A program made the translations under genes and the position numbers. This document shows, one piece after another, positions 280 through 58,559 of a DNA stretch of 64,000 nucleotides; position 1 is the first letter of the stretch; each line of letters opens with the position of its first letter. Under the pieces are notes generated by a model that was given only the letters and a program-made list of their open reading frames with translations, was not told where the DNA came from and did no database searches. This DNA is from Geosiphon pyriformis uo1 (taxonomy: Eukaryota > Fungi > Glomeromycota): the NCBI GenBank assembly GCA_016748015.1, contig JAAOMT010000760.1, positions 296,219 through 360,218 on the forward strand. Direction: 5' to 3'.

Positions 280-1242
280 TGTTACTGGAGGTTTTTGGTC
301 TCTTTTCTTAAATGTTGTTGATGTTTGTTTGCTGTGGATTCCCGTTTTCTGGATGTGGTTGAACTTCCAGTAACTGAATTTATCTTCAAATTATCTTCTA
401 TAATTTGAACTGCTGGGCTTATAAGTGGAATGGCCAATTCCGTGCCAGTTACTTTGTATAGTTACATTGTAGTAAATGTCAACTCTTTCCCAAGAATTGC
501 TCATCTGGAAGCTCACTAAAAATGTATAGTTACTTTGCTGTGAAAGTTAACTTTTCTACAGGAATTCTCGTCTGTAGACTACTCAAAATGATTTATAATA
601 AGAAAAGAAAGAGAATAAAAGAAATGTAAAAGAAAAAGTAAAACTGATGATTTATGGAAGTTATTTCGGATCCAGGCCTGAAAGTGCTTTAACAGTCTAC
701 TGAAATTGGTAGCTAATCAATTTCAAACTGTTAGTAGGAATTGGTTAATTTTAAGGGAAATAATTAAGAATTTGGCTTTTCGAATTATTTGATATTTATT
801 TGTCTTTTGGGTGTAGAGAATTATTCTAATTGTTTAAATCTGAAGTAAAATACATTTTCTCAAAGAGAGACACTCTTTTTTTATACAACTTGTCATAACA
901 CTATTCTATGAACTCGAACTTTGCTATTTTCTACAATTTTGCTAAACTAAAGATATATTTCAGTAAACTACAAGTTATTTCTGTGAACTATTAGATATTT
1001 TGGTGAACTATCAATTATTTCGGCAAATTTCTACAAATTTCGGCAAACTTTTTGAATGTTACATAGTTCAGGGTATTGCATGATTAATCATCGCAATTAG
1101 GTTACATTTGTGTTATATACAAATTGGGTTATTAATTAAATGATAATTTCGGACATTTTGCTAATATAATAAGTGATAATTTGAAATGATAATATATGTT
1201 AATTAATGATGAGAATTATAATAATAATTTCATCTGGTAACA
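280..1242 (-). repeat. 3' LTR of A
   Basis: Near-identical to 18935-19921 and adjacent to the PPT. Has a ~25-bp deletion between short TAATTTC direct repeats near 1230. Confidence 0.93.
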
Positions 1243-1256
1243 TAACCTCTTCCTCA
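1243..1256 (-). promoter_or_regulatory. Polypurine tract of A
   Basis: Minus strand reads TGAGGAAGAGGTTA immediately before the 3' LTR. Confidence 0.85.
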
Positions 1257-1930
1257 AGACTGAGCTCCATCAAAGTCCAAATATTGTCTGTAATTTCCAG
1301 ATAATAATCCAAAATTATTGAAAAAATTTGGTCTGAAAATTGCTGAAATTTCAGTTCTGTGAGCTTTCCAATGTATTGAATCTTCAAAGGTTGTAAAATT
1401 GGGTTTTGTAGGACGTTTTTACAGGCATAAAATAGGTCATAAAGTTTAAGAGCAGTTCTTAGTTTATAATAACTGTTTGTAGGTCCAGCTGTTGTCTTGA
1501 ATTCATTGTGGAGTTGTTTCCAAATAGCTTCTTTTGTGAGGTTTGCTGCTGTAAGCTCCTGTTTTTGTTCATGAAGTGTTTTTTCAATGTAGAAATATTT
1601 ATATATAGGAGTATAGTCGTAGTTTTCTTCATTAAGATACAGTTAAAGTTTTTGTTGAATAGTAGCATTCAGTGGAATACTAATAGGAATGAGCATTAAG
1701 TTTTCTCTTAAAGCAAGCTTTAAAAGTTCTGGCAGGTAAATTCCAGAATAACTTCTTGTGTTCTTCTTATATGGGTGATATTTTCGTAAATTTGGGGCTA
1801 AATTTGTGACTACTTCTGTTTGGATATAATTAATGTGGTTTTCAGTAACAGTAATAGATAATTTGGGTATTGTTTTTAAAGCTAACATTAGTTTTTGGGA
1901 TAATTGTTGAATGTTTTAAGGAATAGTCAT
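1254..1930 (-). pseudogene. ORF3 of A (accessory protein of unknown function, decayed)
   Basis: Starts MTIP(Q)NIQQLSQKLMLALKTIPKLSITV and ends ...FDGAQS* at the PPT. Homologous to ORF3 of D, E and F. Confidence 0.7.
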
Positions 1931-8545: not shown

Positions 8546-9372
8546 NNNNNNNNNNNNNNNNNNNNNNNNNNNNNNNNNNNNNNNNNNNNNNNNNNNNNNN
8601 NNNNNNNNNNNNNNNNNNNNNNNNNNNNNNNNNNNNNNNNNNNNNNNNNNNNNNNNNNNNNNNNNNNNNNNNNNNNNNNNNNNNNNNNNNNNNNNNNNNN
8701 NNNNNNNNNNNNNNNNNNNNNNNNNNNNNNNNNNNNNNNNNNNNNNNNNNNNNNNNNNNNNNNNNNNNNNNNNNNNNNNNNNNNNNNNNNNNNNNNNNNN
8801 NNNNNNNNNNNNNNNNNNNNNNNNNNNNNNNNNNNNNNNNNNNNNNNNNNNNNNNNNNNNNNNNNNNNNNNNNNNNNNNNNNNNNNNNNNNNNNNNNNNN
8901 NNNNNNNNNNNNNNNNNNNNNNNNNNNNNNNNNNNNNNNNNNNNNNNNNNNNNNNNNNNNNNNNNNNNNNNNNNNNNNNNNNNNNNNNNNNNNNNNNNNN
9001 NNNNNNNNNNNNNNNNNNNNNNNNNNNNNNNNNNNNNNNNNNNNNNNNNNNNNNNNNNNNNNNNNNNNNNNNNNNNNNNNNNNNNNNNNNNNNNNNNNNN
9101 NNNNNNNNNNNNNNNNNNNNNNNNNNNNNNNNNNNNNNNNNNNNNNNNNNNNNNNNNNNNNNNNNNNNNNNNNNNNNNNNNNNNNNNNNNNNNNNNNNNN
9201 NNNNNNNNNNNNNNNNNNNNNNNNNNNNNNNNNNNNNNNNNNNNNNNNNNNNNNNNNNNNNNNNNNNNNNNNNNNNNNNNNNNNNNNNNNNNNNNNNNNN
9301 NNNNNNNNNNNNNNNNNNNNNNNNNNNNNNNNNNNNNNNNNNNNNNNNNNNNNNNNNNNNNNNNNNNNNNNN
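8546..9372. other. Assembly gap (N)
   Basis: 827 Ns, expected to hide the rest of the B 3' LTR, the PPT and most of ORF3. Confidence 0.99.
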
Positions 9373-9562
9373 TTCCAGAATAACTTCTTGTGTTCTTTTT
9401 ATATGAGTGATATTTTTGTGAATTTGGGGCTAAATTTGTAACTACTTCTGTTTGGGTATAATTAATGTGGTTTCCAGTAACAGTAATGGATAATTTGGGT
9501 ATTGTTTTTAAAGCTAACATTAGTTTTTGGGATAATTGTTGAATGTTTTGAGGAATAGTTAT
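9373..9562 (-). pseudogene. ORF3 of B (5' part)
   Basis: (M>I)TIPQNIQQLSQKLMLALKTIPKL, near-identical to A ORF3. Confidence 0.7.
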
Positions 9563-9667
9563 TATAAGAGATTTGAAATAAAAGAAAATTATTTTTGGTG
9601 TATGGGTTTTTATGTTATTTTTGTTTTGATTGTTTCTAAATTATAAGGAAATAACTAGTAAAATTAA

Positions 9668-11050
9668 TTAAGTGTTCAAGTTAGAAGGTTGTTCAATGAC
9701 AACTATTGGTTCTAAGTTTCGGGGAATATCTTTGGGATTGACTAAAGGGGAATGTATACCAATTTGTGAAATTAATGGTTCAGGATTGTTTCTGGAATGA
9801 TAGTGTTTCAAATGATCTCCATGTGCAACTTTTGCTAGGATTTTGTCATCAAGTCTTAGCTTGTATGATCCATTGCCTAGGATTTCATGGATAAAGAATG
9901 GTTCATCTCATTTATTTTCAAATTTTCTATTCCATTGTTTTTCAGCTTTAGTTCTATGTAAGAGAACTTTGTTTCTGATTTTAAATTCATTGGTGACTGG
10001 AGGCAATTTGTCATTATGCCGTTCTTTTTGTCGAGCTTGAGAGTGTTTAATATGGGTGGCTGCTATTTGTCATTTTCCTTCCAATGTCCTAAGTAGAGTG
10101 TAGGCTCTTTGCTAAAGCATTTCTTGAAAATTGTTTTCATCGATTGGTTGTGCTGGGTATGTTTCCACTATGAAACTAATTGGTAATGTTGCTGTCTTTC
10201 CATAAGTTAAATCAAATGGTGTGTTTTTTGTGGTATCTTGTTTTAGTGTTCTGTATGCTAGCAACACTGATGGAATAAAGATATCCCACTCTCGCTCAAA
10301 ATTGGTTAAGATTTTGGCTAATGACTCACACAATGTTCTGTTAAAACATTCCACAAGTCTATTTGTTTGTGGATGGTAGGGCAAAGACAGAGGTCTTTTG
10401 ATATTGAATTGTTCACAAATTTCTTGTATTAGGTTGTTCACAAAATGTGTCTTCTGATTAGATAAAAGTTCAATTGGACATCCATGTCTACAAATGATGT
10501 CTTCGTAGATAAAATTTGCTACTGATTTTGCATCTGCTCATTGAATGGCTCTGGTTTTGGGCCATTTAGTAAGATAGTCTACAGCTACTGCAATATAATG
10601 GTTTTCTTAAGTGGTAATAGATAGTAGTCCGACTAAATCGATACCAACTCGGTCAAAGGATTGTCCAACTTTGATTGGATTTAATGGTTCAGTAGGGCAT
10701 GTTTCTTCTCTTCTTTGACAACTATCACAAGATTCAACATATTTGTGAATGTCTTTTCTCATTTGAGGCCAAAAGTAGTATTCTAGTGTTCTTTGGGTGG
10801 TGCTATCTTTTTCGAAGTGTGCTAATGAAGGATTGAAGTGCATTTTGTATAATATGGTTTCTTTTTCCTGTTCTTGTATTAATCTGAGTGGTTTGTTTGG
10901 GTTTTTGAAATTTCGATGTTAAATAATGTTGTGTAGAAAATATTGTTTGGCTTGTTGTTGTAGTTAATGTTTTTCATCTGGAGACCAATCTGTTGGGATT
11001 GTTAATGTTTCCAAATATTGTTTGAGATTGTTGTAGTTTTCCGAATTTAT
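9668..11050 (-). pseudogene. int: Integrase ORF of B
   Basis: Collinear with A integrase; start decayed ATG>ATA. Confidence 0.9.
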
Positions 11051-11101
11051 TGTTTGTTGGCTGTTTTGGTTGGTTAAGTTGAGTGTTGGTTTTTGTGTTT
11101 T

Positions 11102-14100
11102 CTAATCTTGTCTCATTCTGGAGAGACAGTCAACATTGGTGTGAAGTTTTCCTGGTTTGTGATGTACTATGTATTGATAATTTGCTAAAAATCCTGTCCA
11201 TCGGGTTTGTTTTGCATTCAGCTAAGTATTTTTGTTCTGAAGCCATTTGAGTCCAATATTATCAGTGATAATATCGAATTTTTTAGGCCTAAGATAAAAG
11301 TTGAAGTAGTGTAGGGCCCAAATTATGGCTGCTGTTTCTAGTTCTGTGGCAGAATAATTTTTCTCAGCTGGTTTTAATATTCTACTGGCATAAATGATTA
11401 CTTGCTCATTTCTATTGTCATCCAATTATGATAGGATAGCACTAAAGGCAGTATAAAAGGCATCTGTTGCTAATCGAAATTGGTTGCTGAAATCTGGGTA
11501 GGCGAGGATTGGAGCTGTTGTCAGTTTTTCCTTGAGAATTTCAAAAGCTTTTTGGTGTTCGGTAGTTCATTTGTATTCAACGTTTTTGGTGGTGAGCTGG
11601 TTGAGAGGTTTTGCAATTTCCAAGAATCCTTTGATAAACTTCTGATAGTAGAATGCTAATCCTATAAATCCTCTTAGTTCTGTAGTGTTTCAAGGAGTTT
11701 TGAAGTTTTTGACAATGCTGATTTTTCCAGAGTCCAGTTTGATTCCATCTTTACTAACGATATGCCCAAGGAAGGCCAAGCTTGTTTTTCCAAAGTAGCA
11801 TTTTTCGATGTTGAGTTTTAGTCCTGCTTTTTATAATTGTTGAAAAACTTCTCGCAGGTGTTTTAAGTGTAATTTGAATGATGGAGAATAAACATCAGTA
11901 TCATTAAGATAAACAACTACTGACTTCTAAAAAAGTTCTTGGTACACAACATCTATTAATCTCTGAAACATTGTTGGTGCATTGCATAATCTGAAAGGCA
12001 TTACATTGAACTCATAATTTCTACCTTGAGTGGTGAATGCTGTCTTGGAACAATCTTTGGGATCCATAGCAACTTGCCAGTAACTGCTTTCTAAATCTAG
12101 TGTTGAAAAGTATTTGGATTTTCCAAGGGCATCTAACATGTCATCAATCTGGAGAAGGGGGTAGGCATCTTTAATTGTAACACTGTTGAATTGTTGATAG
12201 TCAACACAAAATCGAATCTTTCTATTTTTCTTTTTAACTAGCACTACAGATGAAGCCCAAGGACTTATGGAGGGTTGGATGAGCCCATTGTTAAGCATTC
12301 ATTGTACTTCTTCTCAGATGAATTGGTGGCTTTCTGGAGCAACTCAATATGCTTGTTGTCTTCTTGGTTTGACACCTCCTGTATAAATTTGGTGTTGAAC
12401 CAAATTGGTTCTTCCTAAGTCATTGTTGTTTTCAGCGAAGATATTGGCAAATTCTACAATTAGCTCTTTGAGCTGGGTCTGTTGTTGTGGTTCAAGTTGT
12501 CCCATGTTGATTTGAGATAGTTTTTCTATGACAACATGGTAGTTTTTGGAGCTAGGGTTTGGGTTGATTTTTGGTAGTGAATGTCCAATAATTTCAGAGA
12601 AATCGATGACTGTTTGGGGTAATTCTTGTTGAAATATATTATTGTGAATAACTCCAATTTCTAAATTATTTAATAAAATTATGGGGTAATTATTGGGGTT
12701 GTAAAAAGTAACTCGGACTTTCTTTGTTCCTTCTGAAATATAAATGTTTGGGATCGAAATATTATGTTCCAAGCAGATTTGTTCATTGGACTCAAAAATT
12801 TGTTGTGTGGTTGTTGGCTTTGGGCAGGTGTAGATTTCCGGATGTTCTCCAAAAAATGAGATGGTAATTGGTTGTGAAAGTCTGAGAATCTGGTAGAATT
12901 TGTTCTGTATGTTAAGAGCTATATTAACTGGAACTGTGAATCGTCCAGTTGAACCAAAATCTTGAATTCTTCTATCGCTTTTTCCTAATTGTTCTCTTAG
13001 ATTGACTAGTTGCAAACCCGAAATGTTGATTAGGGGTAGGTAAATAGCTTGGGCAATTTTTTCAGCATGTTCAATCTTGAATGGTTTGTCAGTTTCATTT
13101 TGAAACATCACTGTAATGTCTCCAGTATATCCAGCATTGATTATTCTTCCTCTGACATTGATTCCTTTGCTTGCCAGAGAGGACTAGGAGGTGATTTGAA
13201 CCATTGCTCCTGATGGGATTTTGAGTGCAATTTTGAGGTTGATTTTTGTGAGAGATTTGGGTTTGAGAACAAGGGTATCCTCGCCTGGATATCTTAAGTC
13301 ATATTCAGCATTAATTTCGTGTGCTTTTTCAGGTTTTATTTCTTGTCCATTGTTGTTGAAGTATTTAAGTTGTAAGGCAGACTCTTGTCCAGTGAAAATA
13401 ATGAGAACAAAATTGAATTTGGAGAACCTGAAGCAATGAAAGAAATTGAAACAACACCTATCTACCTTATCAAAAATCGGAATACTAAGAGTGTAGCATT
13501 CAGAACACCACTGTTCATCATAAGGCATAATGCATTTTTCACATAGCCTAATGTTCATTTGCTCTAATTATTGAATTTGAGCTTCTTGGGTTGGATAGAT
13601 GTGACTTGCAATTTGGTGGTAGACTTCTACTTCGTCTTCATAATCAAATCTAGCTAATTCTATGGTGTATTCAATGTATTCTGCTTTTTTCATTTGACAA
13701 ATATCTTCTTTGGTAGCTCTATTAATTAATGCCATTGCTAAGTCAAAAATTATCTTGGCATTATGGGGGTAGTAATAAAGTTTGTTGAGAGCACTGTTGT
13801 ATGCCGTATTAAAGGGTGTTCCTCTTTTTACTTTTTCTGAAATTGATAAAGCATATTGGCAGGTCTGATCACAGACTCCTCCTCTCATGGCTACATCAAT
13901 CCAATTGCATTCTTCCAGTAGCATATCTCCACAAGTCAAACAAGAGGTGTTGTCTCATTTTCTGCTCCTTTTTATTAGATGGCCCCATCATTCTCTGTAG
14001 CAAGCCTTGCAGTAATAACAAGTATGATTTTCATATTCTTCTTCAGGTGAAATGCAGACTCTTATTGACGATAGTTTCTTGTGGCAATCCTTACATTTAA

Positions 14101-16720
14101 GGAGAATATAAGGGCGTTGTTTCCTTGGTTCAGATTTTGAGTAAGGGATATTCTATTCAGAGGTTTCGGGTTCAGAGTGTGGGATAAAATGTTCTTGTTC
14201 TGTTTCATCAGCCCAGTTGGACGTTGATCCAAGAGCCATGAATGTTTCAATGAGAGGTTTTTCCTCTTCCAGTTCAAATTCAAAAACCGGGGCTTTTTCA
14301 GAGTGTTTGTTAAATGTATCACAAGTGACAAATATCCGGATGTGTTGTCCTTGGTAGGAAATTGTTAACTCTTGTGTTTTCCAATTCAGATTAGCATTGG
14401 CTTTTTGAAGCCAATCATTTCCGATGAGAGCTTAGTACTGGGGTGTGTTCATTACAAGAACTTTGACTGGAATAGTGATTCCATCAAGAGTGAATAGAAA
14501 ATTGTCAATTTCTCCTACTGGGGTCTTTTTCATGCCATCGGCAGTGACAATTACTGTTTGAGCTGGTTAGTTGACATTTCTTTTCAACTGTTGCATTAAC
14601 TGGTAGGTGATAATGCTTTCAGCGGATCTACTGTCTAAGATTAAGCAAATTGTTTTTTCTTCGACTTCTGCTTCAGTGTATATAGCTGTGATTGCTTTTT
14701 GTTCATTGGCGACTGCATTACTAAGCAGGAATGGTGACTCATTTGCTTCGAACTCAAAAGAGAATATATCTGAAAGGTTAGCATTTTCAGCAATTCTGGC
14801 TGGTGAGATTGTGGTGGGAGTATAGGAAGGGTTTTGTTGTTGTGCTGCAGCTCTACCTTCCGAGGGTGCAGTATGGTAAAAATTCTGTTCTTCTGGCATT
14901 GTTAAATAACTGGGTTGAATGTGGTAGTGGTTGGGTCTTGGTTGAGTGGAATTTTGGGGAACCAATTGGTTGTTCAAACTGATTCTATTGTTGTTTACTT
15001 GGTATTGGTTTTGTGGTGTGAATTGATTTTGTGTAATCAGTCTTTGAGCAGGTATTTGATAATGTTGTGTGGGTAGTTGTTGGTATTGCTGTTGGATTGG
15101 CTATAGGGTAGGCTGATAATAGTTATTTTGGTATTGGGGTCTTGGTGGATAATAAGCTGGTAGTGGTGGTTGATAATAAGATTGCTGTAGTGGAGGGTAA
15201 CATTAATTACTCCTATTTTGTTGGTCTTGTTGTAGCTTTCTGCAATCTCTTTTCCAGTGGCCAGAGATTCCACAGTAATGGCAATTTTGAAGCTGGTTAT
15301 TGAAAAATAGTACAAAGTTATTTTGATTTCATCTTTGGGATGGTTGATATCTTTGGGATTGCTGTTGTTGTTGATTGGTAAAATAGTTTTCAACTTTCTT
15401 TGTGAGTTGGTCAATTTTTTTCTTAGCTGCTAAGCTGGTTTCTCTAATTGCTAAATTTACAAGTTTTGTGTGATTGGCCTCTTCCATGGCCATTTCATAT
15501 CTTTTCGCATGCTGTATGGCAGAGTTTAAATCTTCTGGTGCATGTGGGCAAACCTTTTTAATTAGTTTATCTTTTAGACCAGCAATAAATTGATCCAAGA
15601 TTTGAGCATTGGAATAATAATCATTTGTTTCGAGTTGGCAAATTTGTCTGAGAAGTTTGTTGAATTTTTCAATATAAGTTATAACAGATTCGGAGAGTTC
15701 TTGTTTGATATTTCGAAAATGATTATGAAAGATGATAGAGGTATTATTGTCGGTGAACTGTTTAAGGAAGGCTGCTTTGAAAGCATTCCAATCATTGAAT
15801 GGGGTGGCCAAGTTTTCAAACCATTCTCCTGCTGTTCTTTTAAGAAAGTAGAGAATTGTTCTTAATATTCTGGCAGTATTCCATCCATTTGCATTTCCAG
15901 CTTTAGTAACTTGGTCGAGCCATTCTTGGGGACTGGTTTCAATGTCTTCTCCATTAAATTCAGGGATTTTTACAATATATGTTGTCATTTTATCTTCTTC
16001 GTTTTCACTGTCTATTGATTTTTCTTCAGATATTTCAAGTTTATTTTCTTTGTTTGCTGCTGTCTCAGAGTGTTCACTTTGATTTTCAGCTAGAAAGTCA
16101 AGGAGATTGGAACTAGTTTGAAGGGGTTCTTGTTGTCTGATAAGACTTCTGAGTGATGTAAAATCTTCTGGTCTTGCAAATCAATTCAAGGGTGAATTAG
16201 GCATTTGTGCTTGTGCAAGTGAAGCTGGAAAAGGTGTAATAGTAAGTGGAAGTTTTGAACTGGTTTTTTGTTCAGGTGTTTGTAAATGTTTGGCAGTTGT
16301 TTTTGGTAGTATTGGAGTATTTGGGATGGTTTTTGAGTATTGCTTCAATTTGTTTTTGCCTTTGTTGCTTGTTTCTGTTTCCGATTCAAAATCAATAGAG
16401 TATTGAGACTGCACTAAATATGTTTCTTCACAGTATTTGATAATGTTAAAATTAAGTTTGTGAAAGTAAGTGGCAAGTGTTTTGCTGTTAAGGTTTTCAG
16501 TTTCCAACTGTGAATAGTGTGTTAAATTATTGTAAAGGTTGCTTCTAACTTCTGAGATATTGTAATTTCCAAAAAGATAATTGTTGATGCAGTTTTCAAT
16601 GTATTGGTATACTGATTTCTTGACAACTTCAATTCCGTCTGGAATGTTGAATCTTTGCTTGCAGTGGGTGTAAATTGATTGGTAATACTCTAGAGTTGTT
16701 GTGTCTAGTGTGGTCGCCAC
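11102..16720 (-). pseudogene. gag-pol: Single-frame Gag-PR-Cys-rich-dUTPase-RT-RNase H polyprotein of B (about 1870 codons)
   Basis: ORF fragments ending at 16181, 15329, 14567, 13568, 13184, 12344, 11927 and 11222 share one frame from GTG 16720 to TAG 11102. Internal stops are CAA/CGA/TGG decay products. Confidence 0.92.
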
Positions 16721-16748: not shown

Positions 16749-16764
16749 CCATGGGAGAGCACCA
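16749..16764 (-). promoter_or_regulatory. Primer binding site of B
   Basis: TT + TGGTGCTCTCCCATGG directly after the 5' LTR. Confidence 0.85.
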
Positions 16765-16766
16765 AA

Positions 16767-17748
16767 TGTTACCAGAGGTTTTTGGTCTCTTTTCTTGAAT
16801 GTTGTTAATGTTTGTTTGCTGTGAATTCACGTTTTTTGGATGTGGTTGAACCTCCAATAACTGAATTTATCTTCAAATTATCTCCTATAATTTGAACTTG
16901 CTGGGCTTATGAGTGGAATGGCCAATTCTATGCTAGTTGCTTTATGTAGTTACGTTGTAGTAAACATCAACTCTTTCCCAGAAATTGCTTGTTTGGAAGC
17001 TCACTAAAAATGTGTAGTTACTTTGCTGTGAAAGTCAACTCTTCTACAGGAATCTCGTCTGTAGGCTACCTTAATGATTATAATAAGAAAAGAAAAAAAA
17101 AATAAAAGAAATGTAAAAAAAATAGAATTCTGTCAAGGAAAACGTTTTCTATCCAGGCCTGGAGTCACTAACAGTTTACTGAAATTGGTAGCTAATCAAT
17201 TTCGAAATGTTAGTTGGGTTTTTGGGGGTTTTTCTAAGTACAATAATTAAAGAATTTGGTTTTTTGAATTATTTAATATTTATTTCTTTTTGTGTATATA
17301 GGAACAGTTTTAAGAGATAAATCTAAAGTAAGATACATTTTCTCGAAGAGAGATGCTTTTCTTTTATACAACTTGTCATAACACTATTCTATGAACTTGA
17401 ACTTTGCTATTTTCTACAATTTCGCTGAACTAAAAATACATTTCAGCAAACTACAAGTTATTTTTGCGAACTATTAGATATTTCGGTGAACTATCAATTA
17501 TTTTGGTGAATTTCTACAAATTTCGGCAAACTTTTAAATGTTACATAGTTTGGGATATTGCATAATTTGATCATCGCAATTAGGTTACATTTGTGTTGTG
17601 TACAAATTGGGTTATTAATTAAATAATAATTTTGGACATTTTGCTAATGTAATAAGTGATAATTTGAAATAATAATATATGCTAATTAATGATAGGATTT
17701 ATAAGATAATTTCATGCTAAATAATATCTCTAATTTTGTCTGGTAACA
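16767..17748 (-). repeat. 5' LTR of B
   Basis: TGTTAC...GTAACA, 982 bp, followed on the minus strand by the PBS. Confidence 0.95.
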
Positions 17749-18890
17749 CCAGTGATAAATTGATCCAAGATTTGAGCATCAGAATAATAATTATTAATTT
17801 CAAGTTGGTGAATTTGTCTGAGAAGTTTGTTGAATTTCCCAATATAAGTCATAACAGATTTGGAGGGTTCTTGTTTGATATTGCGAAAACAATTTCAAAA
17901 GGTGATGGAGATATTATTGTCAGTGAACTGTTCAAGGAAGGCTGCTTTGAAAGCATCCTAATCATTGAATGGAGTGGCCAAGTTTTCAAACCATTCTCCT
18001 GCTGTTTCTTTGAGAAAGTAGGAAATTGTTCTTAACATTCTGGCAGCATTCCATCTATTTGCATCTCCAGCTTTAGTAACTTGGTTGAGCCATTCTTGGA
18101 GACTGGTCTCAATGTTTTCTCCATTAAATTCAGGGATTTTTGTGATGTATGCTGTCATTTCGTTTTCTTTGTTTTTACTGTCTATTGATTCTTTTTTAGT
18201 TATTTTAGAGTCATTTTCTTCGTTTGCTGCTGTCTCAAAGTGTTCACTTTGATTTTCAGCTAGAAAATCAAGAAGATTGGAACTAGTTTGAAGAGGTTCT
18301 TGCTGTCTGGTGAAACTTCTGAGTAATGTAAAATCTTTTGGTCTTGCAAATCGATTCAAGAGTGAATTAAGTGTTTGTGCTTGTGCAAGTAAAACTAGAA
18401 AAGGTGTGATAATAAGTGGAAGTTTTGACCTGGTTTCTTGTTCAGGTGTTTGTAAGTGTTTGGCAGTTATTTTTGGTAGTATTGGAATATTTGGGGTGGT
18501 TTTTGAGTATTGCTTCAATTTTTGTTTGCCTTTGTTGCTTGTTTCTGTCTCTGATTCAAAATCAATGGAGTATTGAGACTGTACTGGATATGTTTCTTCA
18601 TAGTACTGGATAATGTTAAAATTTAGTTCTTGAAAGTAAGTGGCAAGTGTTTCACTGTTAAGATCTTCAGTTTTCAACTGTGAATAGTGTGCTAAATTGT
18701 TGTAAAGATTGCTTTTAACTTCTGAGATATTGTAATTTCTAAAAAGATAATTGTTGATGTGGTTTTCAATGTATTGGTATACTGATTTTTTGACAACTTC
18801 AATTCCGTCTGGAATGTTGAATTTTTGCTTGCAGTGGGTGTAAATTGATTGGTAATACTCTAGAGTTGTTGCATCTGGTGTGGTTGCCAC
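17749..18890 (-). pseudogene. gag: Gag N-terminal part of A
   Basis: GTG start at 18890. Capsid-like region from ATG 18158 (MTAYITKIPEFNGE...AGEWF). Collinear with B. Confidence 0.9.
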
Positions 18891-18934: not shown

Positions 18935-19921
18935 TGTTACTGGAGGTTTTTGGTCTCTTTTCTTAAATGTTGTTGATGTCTGTTTGCTGTGAATTCCTGT
19001 TTTTTGGATGTGGTTGAACCTCCAGTAACTGAATTTATCTTCAAATTATCTCCTATAATTTGAACTGCTGGGCTTATAAGTAGAATGGCCAATTCCATGC
19101 CAGTTACTTTGTATAGTTACATTGTAGTAAATGTCAACTCTTTCCCAGGAATTGCTCGTCTGGAAGCTCACTAAAAATGTATAGTTACTTTGCTGTGAAA
19201 GTTAACTTTTCTACAAGAATTCTCGTTTGTAGGCTACCCAAAATGATTTATAATAAGAAAAAAAATAAAATAAAAGAAATGTAAAAGAAAAAGTAAAACT
19301 AATAATTTATGGAAGTCATTTCGGATCCAGGCCTAGAAGTGCTTTAACAGTCTACTGAAATTGGTAGCTAATCAATTTCAAACTGTTAGTAGGAATTGGT
19401 TAATTTCAAGAAAAATAATTAAGAATTTGGCTTTTCAAATTATTTGATATTTATTTGTCTTTTGGGTGTAAAGGATTATTCTAATTGTTTAAATCTGAAA
19501 TAAAATACATTTTCTCAAAGAGAGACACTCTTCTTTTATACAACTTGTTGTAACATTATTCTATGAACTCAAACTTTGCTATTTTCTACAATTTTGCTGA
19601 ACTAAAGATACATTTCGACGAACTACAAGTTATTTCTGCAAACTATTAGATATTTCGGTGAACTATCAATTATTTCGGCAAATTTTTACAAATTTTGGCA
19701 AACTTTTTGAATGTTACATAGTTTGGGGTATTGCATGATTGATTATCACAATTAGGTTACATTTGTGTCATATACAAATTGGGTTATTAATTAAATAATA
19801 ATTTCGAACATTTTGCTAATGTAATAAGTGATAATTTGAAATGATAATATATGTTAATTAATAATGGGAATTATAATAATAATTTCATGCTAAATAATAT
19901 CTCTAATTTCGTCTGGTAACA
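18935..19921 (-). repeat. 5' LTR of A
   Basis: Pairs with 280-1242. Confidence 0.95.
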
Positions 19922-20091
19922 ACATAAAAATTGAAGGCTGATTCTGCTGGATAATAGTTGTTGGTTAAACCCAATTGTTGGCTGTACTGTTAAAATAAGA
20001 ATTTAGCAAATTCTAAATGGTTTGTTCCTATTATTTCTGATTCTGCCACTTTTGGATAATGGTTGTTGGTGCTAATTCTCTATAGGATTAT

Positions 20092-23223: not shown

Positions 23224-23872
23224 GTGGCAAAATCCAAAAACATAGGAGCAAACCATTTAGGATTCACCAAATTCTTGTTTCAACAGTACAGCCAACAATT
23301 AAGATTAAACAATAACCATTTTTCAGCAGAATTAGTCTTCAACTTCTACATTAATGACAAAATCACAGACTGCTTAAGAGGAACAGTTAATATTGAATCC
23401 ACAAGAAAAAATTTCTATACAGAATTATTTCAACATATCAGTTTACTAAGAAATTACAGTTTTACACCAATTATCAGGGAAATCAATTAAACCATTGAAA
23501 GATACACACAACAACAATTCTCAATTACCTATGCAGACAAAAAAAAAGGAAGACTACAAACACCAACAGCAACACCAAAAGGAACACAACTATCTACTTG
23601 GAAGAAAACCAGAGTTGAATCACCAACAAATCCATCATACTATTATACCTTAGGAAGTGCCATTAACATTTCATCAACAGATGCATCTACATCACATGTG
23701 ACATCAACATTTGGATGACTCCCATTTCAAAGTAAACAAAAGAAAGCAGAATTACTGGAAACCTATGGCAATTATTTTGAAAGATTTAAATTGCAATTGC
23801 CAATGCTATCAGGATTCTAATCACCACCACCTCAACCAGATTTCAGAAATGTGAGTCCTTAGGAGATAACAG
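23224..23872 (+). pseudogene. gag: Gag N-terminal part of D
   Basis: GTG-AKSKNIGANHLGF..., homologous to F gag; continues at 44342. Confidence 0.88.
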
Positions 23873-24329
23873 TGTTATGGGTAAGCTTGGTGAATAATGG
23901 AAATAGTAACATTTGGTGCTTTCAATTATTGGTGATGCATCTTTTGCATAATTTTATTGGCTTAGTCTTGATTATCAGTCTCTGAAAATCTATTTTTGGA
24001 TGTAAATTTACCCATTGAGTTCTTTGGTTATAAGGCACAAAGTTTGTTTTTTGTCAATTGCAACATTTTTCATAAATGTGAGCTTTTTTCTTCAAGCTAA
24101 TGAGCACAGTTGTTAAGGTCTGGCATTGTCTTTTTGCCCTTCTGGTAAGCTATCAAGATAATGTTAATATCCAAAACCTAGGAGGAGCTGCCCTCTTTTA
24201 CCAGACTATTATGAAGTCTATTCTCAGACAATTGATTTTACTATGTTGCCACTCCACACAGAAATCAAGAAAAAAAAAAAGAAGAGAAAAAAAAAAAAAA
24301 AAAAAAAAANNNNNNNNNNNNNNNNNNNN

Positions 24330-24855: not shown

Positions 24856-25810
24856 TGTTATTCATAGAATATAGGAAATATAGTATTATTAGTCAGTAGA
24901 TATTAGCCAATCAGATGTAGATGTAGTAAATGTGGAATTCCAAGATTCCTTTCAGAGAAATTGCAGGATTCCCTGACGAGGAATCACAGGATTCCAGAAT
25001 TCCAGGATTTCTCTCATCAGGAATCACAAGATTCCAAGAATTCCAGGATTCTTGTCACAAGGAATTGAGGAATTAAGGAATCTCAAATATATATATATAG
25101 CAGTAGCATTAGAAGCAGAAAAAATAGAATCAACACTAAGAATTCTTAGCTTAGTTACTACAATCCTCAAATAAATAATTATTTACTATATCAAATTCAT
25201 TCTCCACTATCAACACTTCATGTTGATGGTAATTAATACTTAACCATACTGGAACAATAGTTCTTGATCATGGCTATTGATGGGATACTAACTTGCAAAT
25301 TGCCTTGGCTTATTTTTTATTTTCTCTTTTATCTTTCTTTATTTTCTTTGTTGTCTACTGATTTGATTAAAGGATTTACTCTTGGAGGACTTATAGAGGA
25401 ATAAAACTTACTTAAAAATACTTACTCTTGAAGGACTTATGAAGGAATAAACTTGCTTAAACAATACTTACTCTTGGAGGACTTACAGAGGAATAAACTT
25501 GCTTAAACAATACATACTCTTGGAAAACTTACAGAGGAACTGACATCAAGAAACAGCACTGGTATACACTTACGGAGGATATCGTACCAGAAGAATCATG
25601 AACCATTAAGCTAAGCAAGCAATCAATAAAACTACAGTTTCAGAAAACTACTAATAAACTGTTATAATTGAATCTCTGTCCATTATACAAAGAACTCGAT
25701 TGGAAAACCTTCAGATCAAATACCTTCAGATTATCATTGTCACTAATTGCCTTGAGCACCAAGTTATGAATTTGTTATTTTATTAACACCCCAAAGAATC
25801 ACTTGTAACA
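24856..25810 (+). repeat. 5' LTR of F
   Basis: Pairs with 34209-35119. CCAAT near 24907, (TA)n TATA-like element at 25088-25099. Confidence 0.94.
25376..25540 (+). repeat. 46-bp tandem repeat (about 3.6 units) in the F 5' LTR
   Basis: Unit TTACTCTTGGAGGACTTACAGAGGAATAAACTTGCTTAAACAATAC; about 2.6 units in the 3' LTR (34746-34864). Confidence 0.9.
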
Positions 25811-25869: not shown

Positions 25870-28800
25870 ATGGCAGAATCAGAAATTATAGGAGCCAACC
25901 ACTTAAGATTTGCAAAATTCTTGTTTCAACAATACAGCCAACTATTAGGATTAAACAATAATCACTACTCAGCCGAATCAGCCTTCAACTATTATGTCAA
26001 TGATAAAATTACAGACTGCCTAAAAGGAGCCGTTAATATTGAATCAGCAAGAAAAAATTTCTATATGGAATTATTTCAACACACCAGCTTACTAAGAAAT
26101 CACAGTTTTGCCCCAATCATCAGGAAAATTAATCAAACCATTGAAAGATACACGCAACAACAATTTCCCATTACCTATGCAGACAAAGGTAAAAGAAGAA
26201 TACAAACACTAGCAGCAACACCAAAAGAAATACAGTTACCTAGTTGGAAGAAACACAGAGTAGAATCACCAACTGCTCTATTATATTACTACACACCTAG
26301 AAGCACCATCAACATTTTATCAGCAGACGTGTCCACCTCAAATGCAACATCAATATTTGAAAGATTTTAGTTCCAAAGCAAACAACAAAAAGAAGACTTA
26401 CTAGGATCATACAGAGTGTATTTTGAAGGATTTAAATCACAATCTCCAATGCCATCAGAAATTTGATCACCAATACCCCAACCAGATTTCAGAGCTGCTA
26501 CTCCATGGGAATTATCAGAGGAAGAAGAGGAAGAAAAAGAGGATCAAGGATTCATCTACCAAAACCCAATCTCAGAAAACTCAGAATTTAAAAACCCAAA
26601 TTTTCAAACCCCAATAAACCCAAATCTAGAAAATCTGGAAAATGCAACTCCAAATATTCAAACACTGCAAAACCCTGAACAAATTAATCAAAATAACTTA
26701 CCTCCGAATATCGTCATCAATCAACCACCAATTGATTCAATAGCCAAACCTATACACTAACTCATCCAACAGCTGTATCAACCAAATCAACCACCCCTTC
26801 AGCAACCTGTTCAACAGCCATTTCAACCACCACCACAACAACTTCAACAACCTGTGCAGCAACAAATGGTATACACACCTATAGCCAAACTTGAAAAATT
26901 TACTGGCAACAAAAATGACGCACAAACATGGATAAACGACGTCGCCAAAGCAATTGTCACTAATAATTGGAACAACACCAAAGCCCTTCAAGCAATCCCC
27001 TATTTTCTCTAGGATACTGCAAATGCATGGTATTAGAGTTTAATTGCCTCACTACAGACATTTCAGCAGTTCAAAACCGAGTTTCTGAGATATTTCAGCA
27101 ATAATAATAGCATCAACAGATTAGCCAACACTTTCAACACCATCAAACAAGGAGACATTGAAGCAGTCACCACTTACCTGGAATGCTTCTATAAAAATCT
27201 GCATCAGATTCAGACCATTGAAGCTAACTACTTCACAGCACCACAAATTTTAAATCAATTTATTAGAGGATTGCACAACAGCATCCTCCAATGAGTATGC
27301 CCAATGCATCCAGCTAACCTACCAACTGCAGTCACATACACTAGAGATTTTGAAGCCACAGAACTCAAGGCTAATCATGCCCAAGCCATCAACCTAGTGA
27401 TAAATGGATTATCTGAATTGGACTTCAAATTGAAACAATTTAGTAATTCAATTAATCAGAAATTGAAAGGATACTTAGCTGACAATCGCACAATTTATCA
27501 ACCACTTCAATGATGCAGCAATCCAGGAAACTACAATTGTTCCCAAAATCAAGCACATCTTTCAACATCGGCCAATCAGCAGTGGCAGCCAAAGATGCAT
27601 GTCTGTCACAACTGTGATAAACAAGGGCACATCAAAGCAAACTGCAATGTTTATAACCATCCATGATTGGGAAATCAATATAGAAACCCTGATCGCCAAT
27701 TTCAAACTCTGAGATATTAACAAAATCAGGAACAATATCAACCCATTTACCTGCCAGTGATGCAGCCAATGTATCAAATGCCTACACCAGTATATCAAAC
27801 TCCGATTTATCAACTGCAGCTGCAAGTAATATATCAACTGTAGCCACAAATCATCTATCAACCCCAACCAATTCAAACACTGCCCCAGAAATCAGCTCAA
27901 ATAACATTAGACAACCCTCAATCCAGAGTTACTCAAAACTGAAGATCAGCAATGGTTGTTTACCAACTGGTCCCCAGTTCATTAAACCCACAATCAGAAT
28001 CACGCCCATGGAATTTGGATACTGGTCACACTCAAAACCCAAATTTCCAATACTATTTAAGTCTCCTGGTTACCTCAGAAGACTCCACATCCAACAAACT
28101 GGAATCCAATCAGCAATTACTTACCAACACAATTCCACTAGCAACCATCTCCAATGATAAATCCCTAGCAGCTATTTTTCCTTTTAAACCCGAAGAAATC
28201 ACACTGGTACCATTATTTAGTGGAGCCATTCTCAAAGAAAAATCCATTACAGTGATGTACACGGATGTCAGAGTTGATGATCACCCCATCAAACTCATCC
28301 TAGATAGTGGATCAGCTGGCAGTATTATCACAAGACAGCTCATAGATCAATTAGGTCACTGAGTTGATTGAGCTGTCAGCACTAGAATCATCACAGCCGA
28401 TGGAGTGACCAAAACTCCAATTGGCGAAATTGATAACTTCCCTTTCGAAGTCAATGGCATTGTAACTCCCATTAAAGTTTTAGTGATGGAAGCCACTCAA
28501 TACCAAGCTCTTGTTGGTAATGACTGGCTATTCAAAGTCAACATGACATTAGACTGGAACACCCAGGAACTCCAGCTAACATATTAGAACCAACACATAC
28601 GTGTACTGGCCACATGTGGCCACTTCAAGACTCCTCCAAAAGAGAAACTATTGATCGAACTGGAGGAGATAAAAGAGAAACCTACCTGGGAAGCTTACCA
28701 AGTCTCCTGGGCCAATGCTGACCACAACAAACTACCACCCATACTATCATGGGATGACAAAAAGAAAAAAAAAAGAGAAAGAAGAACTTACTTGGAAAAC

Positions 28801-33512: not shown

Positions 33513-33565
33513 TTGACAAAAAAATATATAAGAACATAATTGACGTGACAGAAAAGATCAAAAAA

Positions 33566-34195
33566 ATGGAAATTACAGACAATATTCATGCACTAGCCCA
33601 ACAAATTTTTCAATTAATCCAACACCAGGAGATGAAAATTACAATCAATTAACAAACCATTTGTTACAAAAATACGGCAAAGATACCACAAAACAAAGCA
33701 CAGAAAAGACTTGAAAATGTTGTTGACAAGATCATAACCAAGATAAAATTGGCCATAAAAGAACAACAAATAGTCGGATTACACCAAAAACTTACCAGAG
33801 AAACTTGGATTTGGTGGACACAACAATTTCCAAAAAATTATTGTTACTTTTACTTGGAACAACACGTGAATATCTAGAACTTATATACGGATAAAACAAA
33901 GTGGTTATTTGACACAATAATACTACAACAACTAGAACATTTTGTGGGGAAAAACAACTTATCCACACAAGCTCGAGCTATATACTGAATACACACAGCA
34001 TTTCAGGATCAACCAGAAATCTTACTCAACAAAGCAATAAATACGGTTACCAGTAATCAATTGGGAAAAATCACCAATGCTCAATTTGAAAAATTACAGA
34101 CTTAAATAACACAAGTAATTCTCAAAAACAAAATTCAGGAAATACTTTAAGAGGGAGAATTAAAAAAATTAGATTTCGACGGAGCTTAATATTAA
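33566..34195 (+). pseudogene. ORF3 of F (209 codons, single frame)
   Basis: MEITDNIHALAQQIFQLI...FDGA(Q)Y*. Internal stops are all one C>T away from CAA/CAG/CGA. Confidence 0.8.
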
Positions 34196-35239: not shown

Positions 35240-35973
35240 TTAAAATTGAGCTTCTGTAAAACCATATGTATCTATTGTCATGGCTTCATTCATGTAATGT
35301 TTGATGGTTGCTTCAAGTACTGTCTTTTGTAGGTTTTTGAACTGTTGATTGGTTATTTGTCCTATGTTGTTAACTATTATGGTTTTCATAGATCTGTTTA
35401 GTAGTACATTTGGGCAATGTTGGAAGGCAGCATATAGTTGGTATGCTGTTTTGTAATATAGGGTTAGGTTGTTTCTTCCTATGTATTTTTCTACTTTTTG
35501 CATTGCTTCTTTGTTGAACATTCTCTGGCTGAAGTCTTTATATAATGTTTTCAAGTCAAGCTGTTCTTCAATTTTGTAAAACCAATAGGCTGGCAGAAGT
35601 TTTTCTTTCTATTGCTGGGCATTGTCTAGTGTCTATTCCTCTGTTTCAGGGAGTTCGGTCTCACAAAATAAAAATTTTTTAATTCTTCTATCTTGGAGAC
35701 CAAGTATTTTTTTTTGTAATCTTTTTCTTGTTTCTTTACTCTTTCTTCTCCACCTTCTGCCCAAAGGCAATTTTTTCTCCAATATTGCCTTTCGGGTGGT
35801 GGGTAGAAAAGAGAATGTTTAATTCTAATTGAACTCTCGTCCTTCCCTCTCCTGCTTTTATCTTTGTACTGTATCTCTTTTTTATCAATTGTTATTTTTA
35901 TTTGAGCAGAAGATTGTTGAATTGCATCAAACAGTTGTTTCGAAAGTTGTAAAATTTAATCTGAAAGGTCCAT
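35240..35973 (-). pseudogene. ORF3 of E
   Basis: MDLSD(Q)ILQLSKQLFDAIQ...KTAYQLYAAFQHCPNVLL...GFTEAQF* ending at the PPT. Confidence 0.78.
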
Positions 35974-36055
35974 GTTGAAATTCTGTTGATTTATTTTTAT
36001 TGTTTCAGTAATTATATATACTTGAATTTTCTAATTAAATAGTTATGTATCACTT

Positions 36056-40400: not shown

Positions 40401-43224
40401 TTTTCATTGTCTTTAATACATGCATCTATAGTGAATAGCTTCTTTCCACAATTAACACATATGAATCTTGGAGGTTGGTAAAATAAGTTTTTTGGTCCAA
40501 GATTACATATTCTAGTGATGATAATTGGGGTTCCTCTTCTGCTCTGCCTTTTCTTTTTTTTTTTCAGGTTGGTGGTGAGGGTAGTTCAGTTCAATAATCA
40601 TCTACTCATGAAACTTGATAGGTCTTGATGGTTGATGACAGTAGTGTGTCTTTGAATTCAATAAGGAGTTTCTCAGTACATTGGGTTTTAAAGTGTCTGC
40701 ACATAGCTGGGACTTGGGCATGCTGTCCATTGAATATGAGTTGAAGTTCTTGGGTGTTCCAATCAAGAGTAGCATTGGGTTTTGACAACCAATTATTTCC
40801 TACTAAAACTTGATATTAAATAGCTTCTATGACAAGTACTTTGATAGGGATCTGAATCTCATTAATCTTGAAGGAAAAGTTGTCAATTTTTTCTATTGGG
40901 GTTTTTGTGTTATTATCCACTATAATAATCTGAGCAGTAGCAGCACAGTCTATTCGGCAACCTAGTTGATCCATGAGCTGCTTCATGATTATGCTACTGG
41001 CTGATTCACTATTTAAGATTAATTTAATGTCTATTCCTCCGACTCTGGCATTGGTGTATAAAGCTGTTATTGGTTTATTCTCATTGATGGCTGCTCTACT
41101 AAAAAGGCTATGAGTATTCAAGTTATCAATGTCAAAAAAAAATATGGTGGCTAAGGTGGTGTCTTTGGTAATAGTGGCTGGTGGGATATTGCTTGTTGTT
41201 TGCTGGGAAGGTTGGAAGATTTGTTCCACATCCCTCTCTTCCATAGGTATAGATTTATCAAAATCCTGGTCTTTCATAAGACCGAGATAGAAAGCTTAAT
41301 TCGGGTATCTGGTTGGTGCTGGTTGAAATTAGACAGGACCATGAGGGATTGGTCAAGATGGTCCACTGTTGGTTTGCATGTGATTGTTGTTGGGATTCCT
41401 TCATCCCTAATTATAGTCTATGGTTCGAGATCTGGGCTTGTTGTAAAAAGGAATTTAATAGTGAGAGATTGCTTGTGTCATTGATAATAGTTGATAATAA
41501 TTTCAGGGTGGTGGTTGAGTGTATGGGACTTGTTGTGCATACTGGGGTGGTTGATTTTGAGATATGAAATATTGGGATATCATGTTTTGCTAATATCTTA
41601 GTTGCTGGTATTAGTTTTCTTGATTTTGGTCCATTATCTTCTTTCTGCAGTTACAAGCAATATGTTTAGATTTCTGGCAGTAGTAACAGTTGCAGGGATC
41701 AGATCTCCAAGGTTGTTGTTGTTGCTGATGGTTCTGTTGCTGTGAATATCTGCTGTTGTTGTTATTTTCTCTCTGTTGTAATAGTTGATAAGTTTCTGTG
41801 CTTCTGGCTAAGAATTCTTCAATTTTTTGAGTTAATTTCTTACTTAATTGGGTTATTTTTGTGTTGATGTCAGAGATTCTATTGATGGCTAAATTAATGA
41901 CTTGAGTATGGTTCACTTCTTGCTTGGCCAACTTAAAATCACAAGCAAGAGTAACTGCTTCTTGTAGGTTTGCCAGATGGCAAGATCATATAAATTTTAG
42001 GAGGCTGCTCCTTAGTTCTTTAACAAATTGATTGAGGACTTGCACAGTGGTATAATAATTCTGCTCGATGGCTAGGATTTGTCAAAGGACCTGATTGAAT
42101 CTTTCGAGATAAGTGGTTACTGCTTTATAGTTATTTTGTTTTATTATACTGAATTGATTTTGCAATCGGATAAGTGTATTAGGGTCACAGAAGTATTGCA
42201 AAAATGCAAGTTTAAACTCTGTAAAAGAGATAGGCTTCTCTGCAAGACTCTGGTACCATGAATTGGCAGTTCCGGTCAAAAAGAATGGCAGTGCCTAAAT
42301 TGTGTGGTCGTCATCCTAACCATTAGTGGTAATTGCTTTCTCAGCATCCATGATCCAAGAATATGTGTTATCTTCTTCACCAGAGAATTTCTCCAATTTA
42401 ACAATATTCCAGTAAGCCATGATCCAGTTAATGGGTGGGGTATTACTGGTTACATTTAAGGGAATTGGCGTCTGCATATTCGAGTGTTCTTCAGATGCTA
42501 ATGTTGGTTGTTTTCCTTTGTTGCTTAAACCAATAGATTGTAAAATAGCTGTTTCTTCTATTAAAGGAGATGCTGATTCTGTTGGATTTTGTGCTGGTGG
42601 TTGTTTTCAAGTTGACATGTTTTCTTCTGTTTGACCAGCTACTGGGGTAAGATTTCCAAACAGCAATCCGTATTCTCCCAGTGATTTGTTCCAACTTTGT
42701 TGGCCCCAAGAGTGTGGATTTCCAGGAGTTTGTGGTGTTTTAGACTGGGTTTCTAGGGGTGGATTGAATACAATTTTACTTTGGGGTGTTTAATGATACA
42801 ATGAAGTTGTTGGGAAGAGGACCTTTGGTTTTTTATTAACCATGGATTTGTTTTGGACAGTTGTGAGATTATTGGATCTGTATTTGTATTCTTCCAGATC
42901 AGATTCTACTGGTTGTTGTACTTGAGGGAATTGTTTTATCATGTAGTATTTAATGTCCATATTAACTATACATAGAGTTTTAGTAATTGCTTGAGTAGTG
43001 GTAGTTGTTGAGTACCTTAGTAAGCTTTGATGGATTTGTTCTCCAAGTCTTCTTGTGTCAGTTGTGCAGCCTAACAAGCAGTTGATTTTTGCGTTGATAT
43101 AGTTGCAAAAGTCACTTTCTGTAATGGTAGTTTCTGCTGGTATTTCTAGATTATTTTGAAAGTATTGAAAGAGTGCTCTTCCATATAAAGAATGGCTTTT
43201 TTCTATTGTTCTAATAGTCACCAC
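37434..43224 (-). pseudogene. gag-pol: Gag-PR-Cys-rich-dUTPase-RT-RNase H of E
   Basis: GTG start at 43224, CYYCQKSKHIACNC knuckle, protease, dUTPase (DAGFDL, GGIINAGYTG), RT with intact YLDD near 38230; ends NADSLSRMPQT*. Confidence 0.92.
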
Positions 43225-43285: not shown

Positions 43286-43697
43286 TATTATGGGTAAGCT
43301 TGGTGGGTAATAGAAATTGTAACGTTTGGTGCTTTCAATTATTGGTAATACATTTTTTGCATAATTCTGTTGGCTTAGTCTTGATTATCAGTCTCTGAAA
43401 ATTTATTCCTGGATGTGAATTTACTCATTGAGTTCTTTGGTTATAAGGCACAGAGTTTGTCTTTTGTCAATTGCAATGTTTTCCATAAATATGAGCTTTC
43501 TTCTTTGAGCTAATGAGCACAGTTGTTAGGATCTGGCATTGTTTTTTCGCCCTTCTGGTAAGCTATTAAGATAATATTAATATTCAAAACCTAGGGGGAG
43601 CTGCTCTTTTTTATCAAGCTATTACAAAGTCAATTTCCAGACAGTTGATTTTACTATGTTGCCGCTCTACACAGAAATCAAGAAAGAAAAAAAAGAG

Positions 43698-43758
<61 letters not shown>

Positions 43759-44341
43759 AAAAGAAAAAATTAGTATTGTCAATCACCATGATCAAGAGCA
43801 ATTGGTTTAAGTTGTTAATAGTTCGAGGTGATTATGCTAAGAGCATCTGTCCTAAAATAAAGGTAGAAGACAATAAATTTAATTGAAACATAGATGTTTG
43901 GAGAACAGGAGTTTGTGATTTTGAATATACAATTTATTTAGGAATATGTGTATAAGCTAAAAGATGAGAGAGTAAAGAAAATTGATTCTTGTCTAGCTGT
44001 CTGTCTTTTTCTAGCTTCTATAACTACTCGTTTTTATACATTCTTTTGGTTTTACAGGATTGTTTACAATTGTTATGTTATTACTAGCTATTGCTTTGTT
44101 ATTTCTGTTATTGCTTTATTATTCTATGTTATTGCTAGTTATCTTGTATTATAACACATTATCTGGTATTATTACATGCTATTCTGTGTTATTCTACATT
44201 ATAACATTTTATCCTGTGTTATCTTAAGTTATAATGCATTATTCCATGTTATTGCATATTATTCTGTGTTATGTCATGTTTTGTTCATGTTTTGGTCATG
44301 TTTTTCTCATAACTCGGATCAGTTTTTCTATTCAGATAACA
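43286..44341 (-). repeat. 5' LTR of E
   Basis: 1056 bp; pairs with the split LTR 23873-24855 plus 35120-35225. Confidence 0.92.
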
Positions 44342-51306: not shown

Positions 51307-51367
51307 AATCAAACAATTAAAAAAATATATAAAGACACAGTATACATGACAAAAGCAACTAAAAAAA

Positions 51368-56699: not shown

Positions 56700-56701
56700 T
56701 A

Positions 56702-58530: not shown

Positions 58531-58559
58531 AAATGGTTTGAATTTATTATATTGAATTG

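Follow-up and report, generated by a model that had tools for sequence, protein, structure and literature searches.

Initiation of Gag translation at a codon other than AUG is already known from PEG10 and MLV, and by analogy the GUG start and long folded-domain extension described below for retrotransposons of the fungus Geosiphon pyriformis would be a variant of it. In PEG10, a mammalian host gene derived from a retrotransposon, a CUG lies 34 codons upstream of the AUG, and mutagenesis showed that both starts are used and give products of two sizes (PMC2800197). The Geosiphon elements would share with it a Gag-type frame with an in-frame non-AUG start upstream of an AUG. In contrast, they are autonomous, have GUG in place of CUG and would add 244–332 residues with a predicted folded domain instead of 34, their two products being a prediction. 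The glyco-Gag of MLV (gPr80) starts at a CUG, has 88 extra residues with a signal sequence and is a type II membrane protein (PMC5120145; PMC3542737). In Geosiphon as well, as judged from DNA, a non-AUG start lies in frame upstream of the gag AUG and would let a single RNA encode Gag in two sizes. However, the AUG form of MLV keeps the matrix domain, whereas that of Geosiphon would begin at the capsid, and the Geosiphon extension is about 3–4 times longer and opens with a predicted soluble helical domain.

Among reverse-transcribing viruses, ORFs I–III of rice tungro bacilliform virus combine shunting over a leader hairpin, an AUU start and leaky scanning through about 895 nt nearly free of AUG (PMC3542737). 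Both systems are reverse-transcribing and would share a non-AUG first start, with AUG-poor stretches of similar length (730–1,000 nt here), but the virus has separate ORFs and the Geosiphon elements one in-frame extension. Conserved near-cognate starts are also used in fungi, and Neurospora cpc-1 has a long in-frame AUG-free extension with the conserved near-cognate codons ACG, AUU and CUG (PMC5487733). It resembles Geosiphon gag in being fungal and in having near-cognate codons in the A-3/G+4 context, and differs as a cellular transcription factor tied to uORF control. In AAV, a DNA virus, a weak ACG start gives a minor N-extended capsid subunit (VP2) and a downstream AUG the major one (VP3). 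A weak near-cognate start and a minor N-extended capsid would be common to both systems, and the two Geosiphon forms may co-assemble. Finally, Ty3/gypsy (Metaviridae) elements with a dUTPase have the same domain order, LTRs, primer-binding-site (PBS)-like motif and 4-bp target duplication, whereas the Geosiphon elements differ in their GTG-opened extension, in a predicted helical domain for which no match was found and in a further 3' ORF. In the literature searched, mostly outside subscription journals, no report was found of an LTR retrotransposon whose gag starts at GUG or lacks an ATG.

Elements and families in the window

The analysed stretch, hereafter the window, comprises 64,000 nt of G. 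pyriformis uo1 (assembly GCA_016748015.1, contig JAAOMT010000760.1, positions 296,219 to 360,218, forward strand). Self-comparison, LTR pairs and 4-bp target duplications resolved six decayed, nested Ty3/gypsy LTR retrotransposons (A–F) of three families, AB, CDF and E, with about 65–69% nucleotide identity in RT and integrase. They form two triple nests in window positions 1–52931: C contains A, which contains B, and D contains E, which contains F. The insertion site of A, B and E is gag of the respective host element, and that of F is the 3' LTR of E. The paired LTRs have TG...CA ends, the target duplications are exact for A and B and decayed for E and F, and a PBS-like TGG motif follows the LTR in all six elements.

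18935–19921, minus strand: 5' LTR of A, which is inserted into the N-domain of C; the 3' LTR ends at 280
16767–17748, minus strand: 5' LTR of B, with a TATA-like box at 17368, a leader of about 600 nt and a 4-bp target duplication
16753–16764, minus strand: PBS-like TGG motif of B, recognised from the sequence directly after the 5' LTR

Pfam domains follow the Ty3/gypsy order of capsid, zinc knuckle, protease, dUTPase, RT and integrase, with a Ty3-type capsid (Retrotrans_gag, 2e-12; Ty3_capsid, 5e-8) and a zinc knuckle (zf-CCHC, 1e-5) in Gag. In E and F, RVT_1 precedes rve or SH3_Tf2-1, the protease was matched in D and Integrase_H2C2 in A; RNase H was recognised by eye, and the protease–RT–integrase order is that of Ty3/gypsy. 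By LTRs, capsid type and domain order, the elements are Ty3/gypsy LTR retrotransposons.

Several further features were observed. A single reading frame of B (9373–15988, minus strand) spans gag, protease, dUTPase, RT and integrase. A TAG common to A and B between RNase H and integrase (B codon 1629) may be a true stop codon or the result of decay. Between the integrase stop and the 3' LTR, in the position of env, A, F, D and E each have an extra sense-strand ORF of about 200–230 codons:

about 1230–1930, minus strand: extra 3' ORF of A
33560–34180, plus strand: extra 3' ORF of F
51350–51990, plus strand: extra 3' ORF of D
35250–35980, minus strand: extra 3' ORF of E

By tblastx, this ORF has 31% identity between F and E over 103 codons and 40% between F and D over 77; that of A had no tblastx match to the copies of the other elements, and its stop-free part no significant Pfam match. 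Positions 52932–58700 and 62400–64000 (minus strand) hold RT-bearing sequence that is decayed, lacks LTR pairs and probably belongs to non-LTR retroelements, with a weak RVT_1 match at 62955–63404. A solo CDF-type LTR lies at about 54617–55451, a very AT-rich stretch (GC 12–25%) at 58900–60600, and runs of N at 8546–9372 and 24310–24329. Neither an Rfam match nor a tRNA gene was found.

The start site of gag

In each element the gag frame opens 42–60 nt 3' of the PBS-like TGG, with AAA-GTG-G in A, B, C, D and E and with AAAC-ATG-G in F. The sequence-only reading of this DNA had described these contexts, and its 11 coordinates are all correct.

16718–16720, minus strand: GTG opening the gag frame of B (AAA-GTG-G)
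16769–16771, minus strand: in-frame TAA at the LTR end of B, 16 codons upstream of the GTG
15986–15988, minus strand: conserved ATG opening the capsid-like domain of B, with Retrotrans_gag and Ty3_capsid matches downstream
18159–18890, minus strand: GTG of A (18888–18890) and its stop-free 244-codon extension, followed by the capsid ATG (18156–18158)
19922–20049, minus strand: GTG of C (20047–20049) and the first 42 N-domain codons, continued at 279–1
23224–23874, plus strand: GTG of D (23224–23226) and first part of its extension, interrupted by E
44342–44670, plus strand: rest of the extension of D and its capsid ATG (44668–44670)
42418–43224, minus strand: GTG of E (43222–43224), 268-codon extension and capsid ATG (42418–42420)
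25870–26868, plus strand: start site of F, reading ATG where the family majority is GTG, 332-codon extension and capsid ATG (26866–26868)

The conserved capsid AUG had been placed 240–330 codons after the start; the measured distance is 244 codons in A and B, 268 in E, 332 in F and about 325 in D with the nested E left out. As had been noted for the TAA of B, the frame is closed upstream: the nearest in-frame stop lies 24, 16, 10, 1, 12 and 14 codons before the start in A, B, C, D, E and F, respectively, and the one in D may be a product of decay.

Family statistics were drawn from gene-model proteins and public DNA contigs. All listed matches to the extension were G. pyriformis gene models, at least 120 for AB, 76 for CDF and 45 for E. 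Val, not Met, is the majority residue of the start column in all three families: V 83, M 11, L 5 and N 1 in the 100 AB proteins scored (20 lacked the region); V 32, M 13 (one being F itself), L 3 and E 1 in 49 of CDF (27 unscored); and V 17 without any M in 20 of E (25 unscored). Further copies from a profile search have Val there in 22/25 (AB) and 36/44 (CDF) cases. Since gene callers favour Met starts, these tallies understate Val. With Met in 18 of the 93 scored copies, CDF may contain an ATG-starting subfamily.

The ATG of F had been explained as CpG decay of AAAC-GTG, which the public contigs bear out: 25870 is G instead of A in 75% and 25869 is A instead of C in 82% of contig depth. Moreover, proteins ending in N-L-N-V at the start site, together with C at -1 in about 18% of contig depth, show that there is an AAAC-GTG subfamily. 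Mutational decay runs G>A and C>T, as seen in 32 of 40 listed differences (out of 104) between B and its family; with this direction, the GTG was not made from an ATG, which agrees with the earlier argument from local bias. Position 16720 is absent from these 40 listed of 104, which shows only that there is no strongly supported change at it. GTG accounts for 31 of the 215 Val codons in the element ORFs, yet is used at 5/5 start sites in the three families, always with AAA before and G after; given this rarity, such agreement is unlikely by chance. The +4 G is nearly fixed, with Ala or Val as second residue in 80 of 81 AB proteins. According to PMC3542737, initiation away from AUG normally depends on a -3 purine and a +4 G, and GUG initiates appreciably; in the efficiencies given in PMC5666671, CUG ranks highest among near-cognate codons, followed by GUG. 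Overall, the data from the families favour inheritance of GTG at the start site, with the ATG of F as its CpG-decayed form.

An upstream exon could instead supply an AUG by splicing, either as an exon ending in A joined to TG after an AAG acceptor or as a coding exon joined at a CAG 15–32 nt upstream. Gene predictors do use these acceptors for the N-termini of their models, in which several internal Met or Leu also appear to be predicted splice joins, and ACAG precedes the GTG in all three families. In addition, the CDF and E leaders contain a branch-point-like TACTAAY with a long pyrimidine tract, and the extra 3' ORF suggests that the elements may splice. Against this, the AAAC-GTG subfamily has no AG before the TG, and the spacing between CAG and GTG shifts the frame within families (15 nt in A, 17 nt in B, and a 1-nt deletion in 43% of AB contig depth). 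The stretch before the GTG is A-rich, the strong acceptor-like signal lying hundreds of nucleotides upstream behind in-frame stops, and splicing would leave the scarcity of ATG after the start unexplained. Upstream of the GTG the family proteins read in differing frames; these mixed frames and the 1-nt deletion place the beginning of coding constraint at the GTG itself. We consider a spliced AUG unlikely.

Coding constraint and predicted fold of the extension

An extension starting at the inherited GTG would be expected to show selection on its protein, which had been suggested as a check. pN/pS was computed on transversions, which deamination does not produce. Over the N-terminal 105 codons the ratio is 0.06 for F/D, 0.07 and 0.19 for F/C and 0.19 for D/C, compared with 0.26 for the capsid, 0.16 for RT, 0.47 for the F/D linker and 0.91 for an off-frame control alignment; the A/B pair has too few transversions to judge. 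By these ratios the extension is coding, with purifying selection on the N-domain as strong as on RT.

16406–16720, minus strand: N-terminal four-helix domain of B, about 105 codons (AlphaFold model)
15989–16405, minus strand: linker of the extension of B, predicted unstructured, with one decay stop and the single ATG

The N-domain was predicted by AlphaFold as a 113-residue stretch with a mean pLDDT of 85 and helices at 7–23, 31–50, 55–69 and 79–106. In the model of an AB family member, confidence rises directly after the start Val, while the linker reaches a pLDDT of 24–30; the model of whole Gag was poor (mean 39.5). Although the N-domains of different families share only about 20% identity and a BLASTP comparison of B with F was not significant, profiles indicate homology with the register held from the start codon (probability 97.9% for CDF/E, 86.7% for AB/CDF and 43% for AB/E). 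Searches of Pfam, Atlas, Foldseek (E<=0.001) and VIA gave no significant match to the N-domain, which does not show that the fold is new; as regards a matrix (MA) fold, the best Z score of 6.4 belonged to helical bundles that are unrelated.

Mutational decay and base composition might by themselves produce a similar pattern, with the extension untranslated, for the copies are heavily decayed, the extension is G-poor and CAT is also low in raw counts. Such an origin is contradicted by pN/pS, with purifying selection at the level of RT, as well as by the confident predicted fold and the homology across families; decay, moreover, adds ATGs and does not remove them. It is very improbable.

Neither a signal nor a membrane segment was found in the extension: the highest 19-residue hydropathy is 0.39–0.72 in B, E and F, and the peak of 1.48 in A lies in a mutated linker stretch. 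The comparison with MLV glyco-Gag made in the sequence-only reading holds for the logic of initiation and fails for this segment and for the length. The long Gag predicted here, with a Ty3-type capsid and fungal relatives, is not a glyco-Gag. A hairpin downstream of the GTG was also not found (z from -1.55 to +1.28).

The profile search returned 269 proteins; all 117 new ones in the best 150 fit AB or CDF, and the 10 examined were all from Geosiphon. Relatives outside Geosiphon were absent among the matches listed, and the viral and metagenome contigs scanned gave no match. The 72 loci from a scan for the PBS pattern had no DNA similarity to the window, and three of them had weak protein matches. 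Six metagenome loci (L002, L004, L019, L035, L069 and L072), unrelated to the window and apparently other LTR elements, have the same PBS-like motif with an ATG 6–11 nt after it; weak capsid matches (E 5e-4) came from L035 and L072.

Scarcity of ATG between the two starts

Between the two starts we count one ATG in B and three in A, none shared, as reported in the sequence-only reading. Zero common ATG in 729 nt compares with 9.8 expected from the downstream rate (P=5e-5), where 730-nt bins contain 5–15 ATG, and the control triplets CAT, TTG, CTG, ATC and AAG are not depleted in the AB extension. The single ATG of B is ACA in about 94% of the family contig depth, and the three of A face ACA, GTG or ATA in B. 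The AB family majority over 244 codons has no Met, its four NAY-G junctions are NAC or show CpG-like decay, and its three Cys are each preceded by a C-ending codon; in comparison, the next 220 codons have five Met, and roughly twelve of their junctions contain an ATG.

In the other families the effect is smaller. Single copies contain 8 ATG against 11.6 expected in D, 11.4 in E and 12.2 in F, and the raw total over the five extant copies is 28 against about 50 expected from dinucleotides. Shuffling of codon order was significant for B (P=0.0004) and E (P=0.024) and not for A (P=0.22) or F (P=0.29). In the E family, in-frame Met is Thr or Val by majority, and of seven NAY-G junctions six show CpG-like decay and one is TAC in the window; the capsid region of E is itself ATG-poor once decay is allowed for, which weakens its case. 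F and D share 4 ATG against 11.8 expected (P=0.0085), with CAT low there too (P=0.027). The CDF out-of-frame ATGs at 25994, 26000 and 26177 remain the majority in public contigs. All three have a weak -3 context by family majority, and 25994 and 26000 show CpG-like decay in proteins, while 26177, with Thr in only 6/50, looks inherited. By these counts, the ATG desert, which had been claimed for A and B, is clear in AB, present but weakened in E, and weaker and not absolute in CDF. No strong AUG lies between the starts in AB and E, and CDF keeps at most three, out of frame and in weak context.

The Met at the capsid start is conserved in 78/109 AB, 30/32 E and 9/12 CDF proteins. With the GUG start retained, this Met could be kept as a protease cleavage site or as the start of an internally initiated RNA, the short form then arising by a route other than leaky scanning. 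For Ty1 such a precedent is described in PMC5408680, where the internal Ty1i RNA makes p22, a truncated Gag acting as a restriction factor. The Met sits exactly at the linker/capsid boundary, the base at -3 of its ATG is C in D and F, and some ATGs remain in the CDF extension, all of which would fit. The loss of out-of-frame ATGs in AB and E is, however, not predicted by it, and a weak GUG would probably leak scanning ribosomes to the next AUG anyway. We rate this alternative, too, as improbable.

Leaders upstream of the start

The AB leader has six ATG columns, of which four read ACG and one ACA in a sister LTR, and one (TATA+30) is ATG in 3/3 copies; apart from decay and this single ATG, the leader is ATG-free, and the earlier statement that most A/B leader ATGs revert in a sister LTR stands with that exception. 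An AB leader ORF from an ATG near 19098 was considered as an AUG source and rejected, the codon being ACG in two sister LTRs. An AUG-poor leader in general does not hold, since the CDF and E leaders keep ATGs. That of CDF has a uORF about 50 nt after AATAAA, and in both LTRs of E an ATG follows AATAAA at equal spacing. The E leader has seven ATG common to both LTRs and shows no depletion (8 vs 7.7 and 10 vs 9.0), several of them being CpG decay as small protein tallies suggest.

25220–25243, plus strand: upstream ATG of the CDF leader opening a 7-codon uORF, weak context, in 6/6 LTR copies
about 25270–25360 (5' LTR of F), 43650–43790 (5' LTR of E) and sister LTRs: leader motif shared by CDF and E

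This shared motif consists of a TGATCA palindrome followed by TACTAAY and a long pyrimidine or poly-T tract. In the A and B leaders, a poly-Y tract occurs, as does a palindrome of the CCAGGCCTGG type. These palindromes and tracts may act as a splice acceptor, mark the 3' end or promote dimerisation.

The extension might also be reached without GUG initiation: ribosomes could shift frame or reinitiate after a leader uORF, enter internally, or shunt. The CDF uORF, with a long leader behind it, is reminiscent of the shunt at a short ORF in pararetroviruses as described in PMC3542737. Yet no uORF is common to all three families, the ATG of the long AB leader ORF arose by CpG decay, and the choice of GTG in optimal context over other Val codons would be left unexplained; shunting, for its part, would still require GUG as the landing start. 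We find this route quite unlikely, even more so than splicing.

Proposed initiation and its meaning

Upstream stops, a near-cognate start in optimal context and clearance of AUG down to a conserved Met are together what one would expect from GUG initiation with leaky scanning, and we hold it probable, at roughly 0.68, that a single RNA was translated in this way into Gag of two lengths. Since every copy in the window is decayed, this describes once-active elements. A transcript starting near the TATA-like box would be scanned from its cap through a leader of about 600–800 nt. Part of the time ribosomes would start at the GUG and make the long Gag of helical N-domain, linker and capsid, while the remaining ones would scan on to the capsid ATG and make a short Gag beginning at the capsid. 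The long form may be a minor one that joins the particle, the strength of the GUG setting the ratio. The two isoforms proposed in the sequence-only reading are thus backed by an inherited GTG, a coding extension and the AB desert, with initiation itself inferred.

In a bolder form, to which we would give somewhat worse than even odds, a whole lineage of fungal Ty3/gypsy elements would have no AUG for full-length Gag. Its family-conserved GUG would dose a minor subunit with an undescribed helical domain in the matrix position, and an RNA cleared of AUG would send most ribosomes to the capsid start, a control of stoichiometry by start codon.

The feature is real and well supported at the level of DNA and family, its mechanism being inferred. 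On this reading, annotation that demands ATG misses the GTG start, and would for that reason have given hundreds of Geosiphon gene models invented and inconsistent N-termini. If the reading is true, these elements would be a clean evolutionary case, located in an early-diverging fungus, of a non-AUG start obligatory for full-length Gag in autonomous LTR retrotransposons. They would bring an N-terminal Gag domain that has no structural match, and a mechanism open to testing by which a retrotransposon could adjust the proportions of two capsid subunits.
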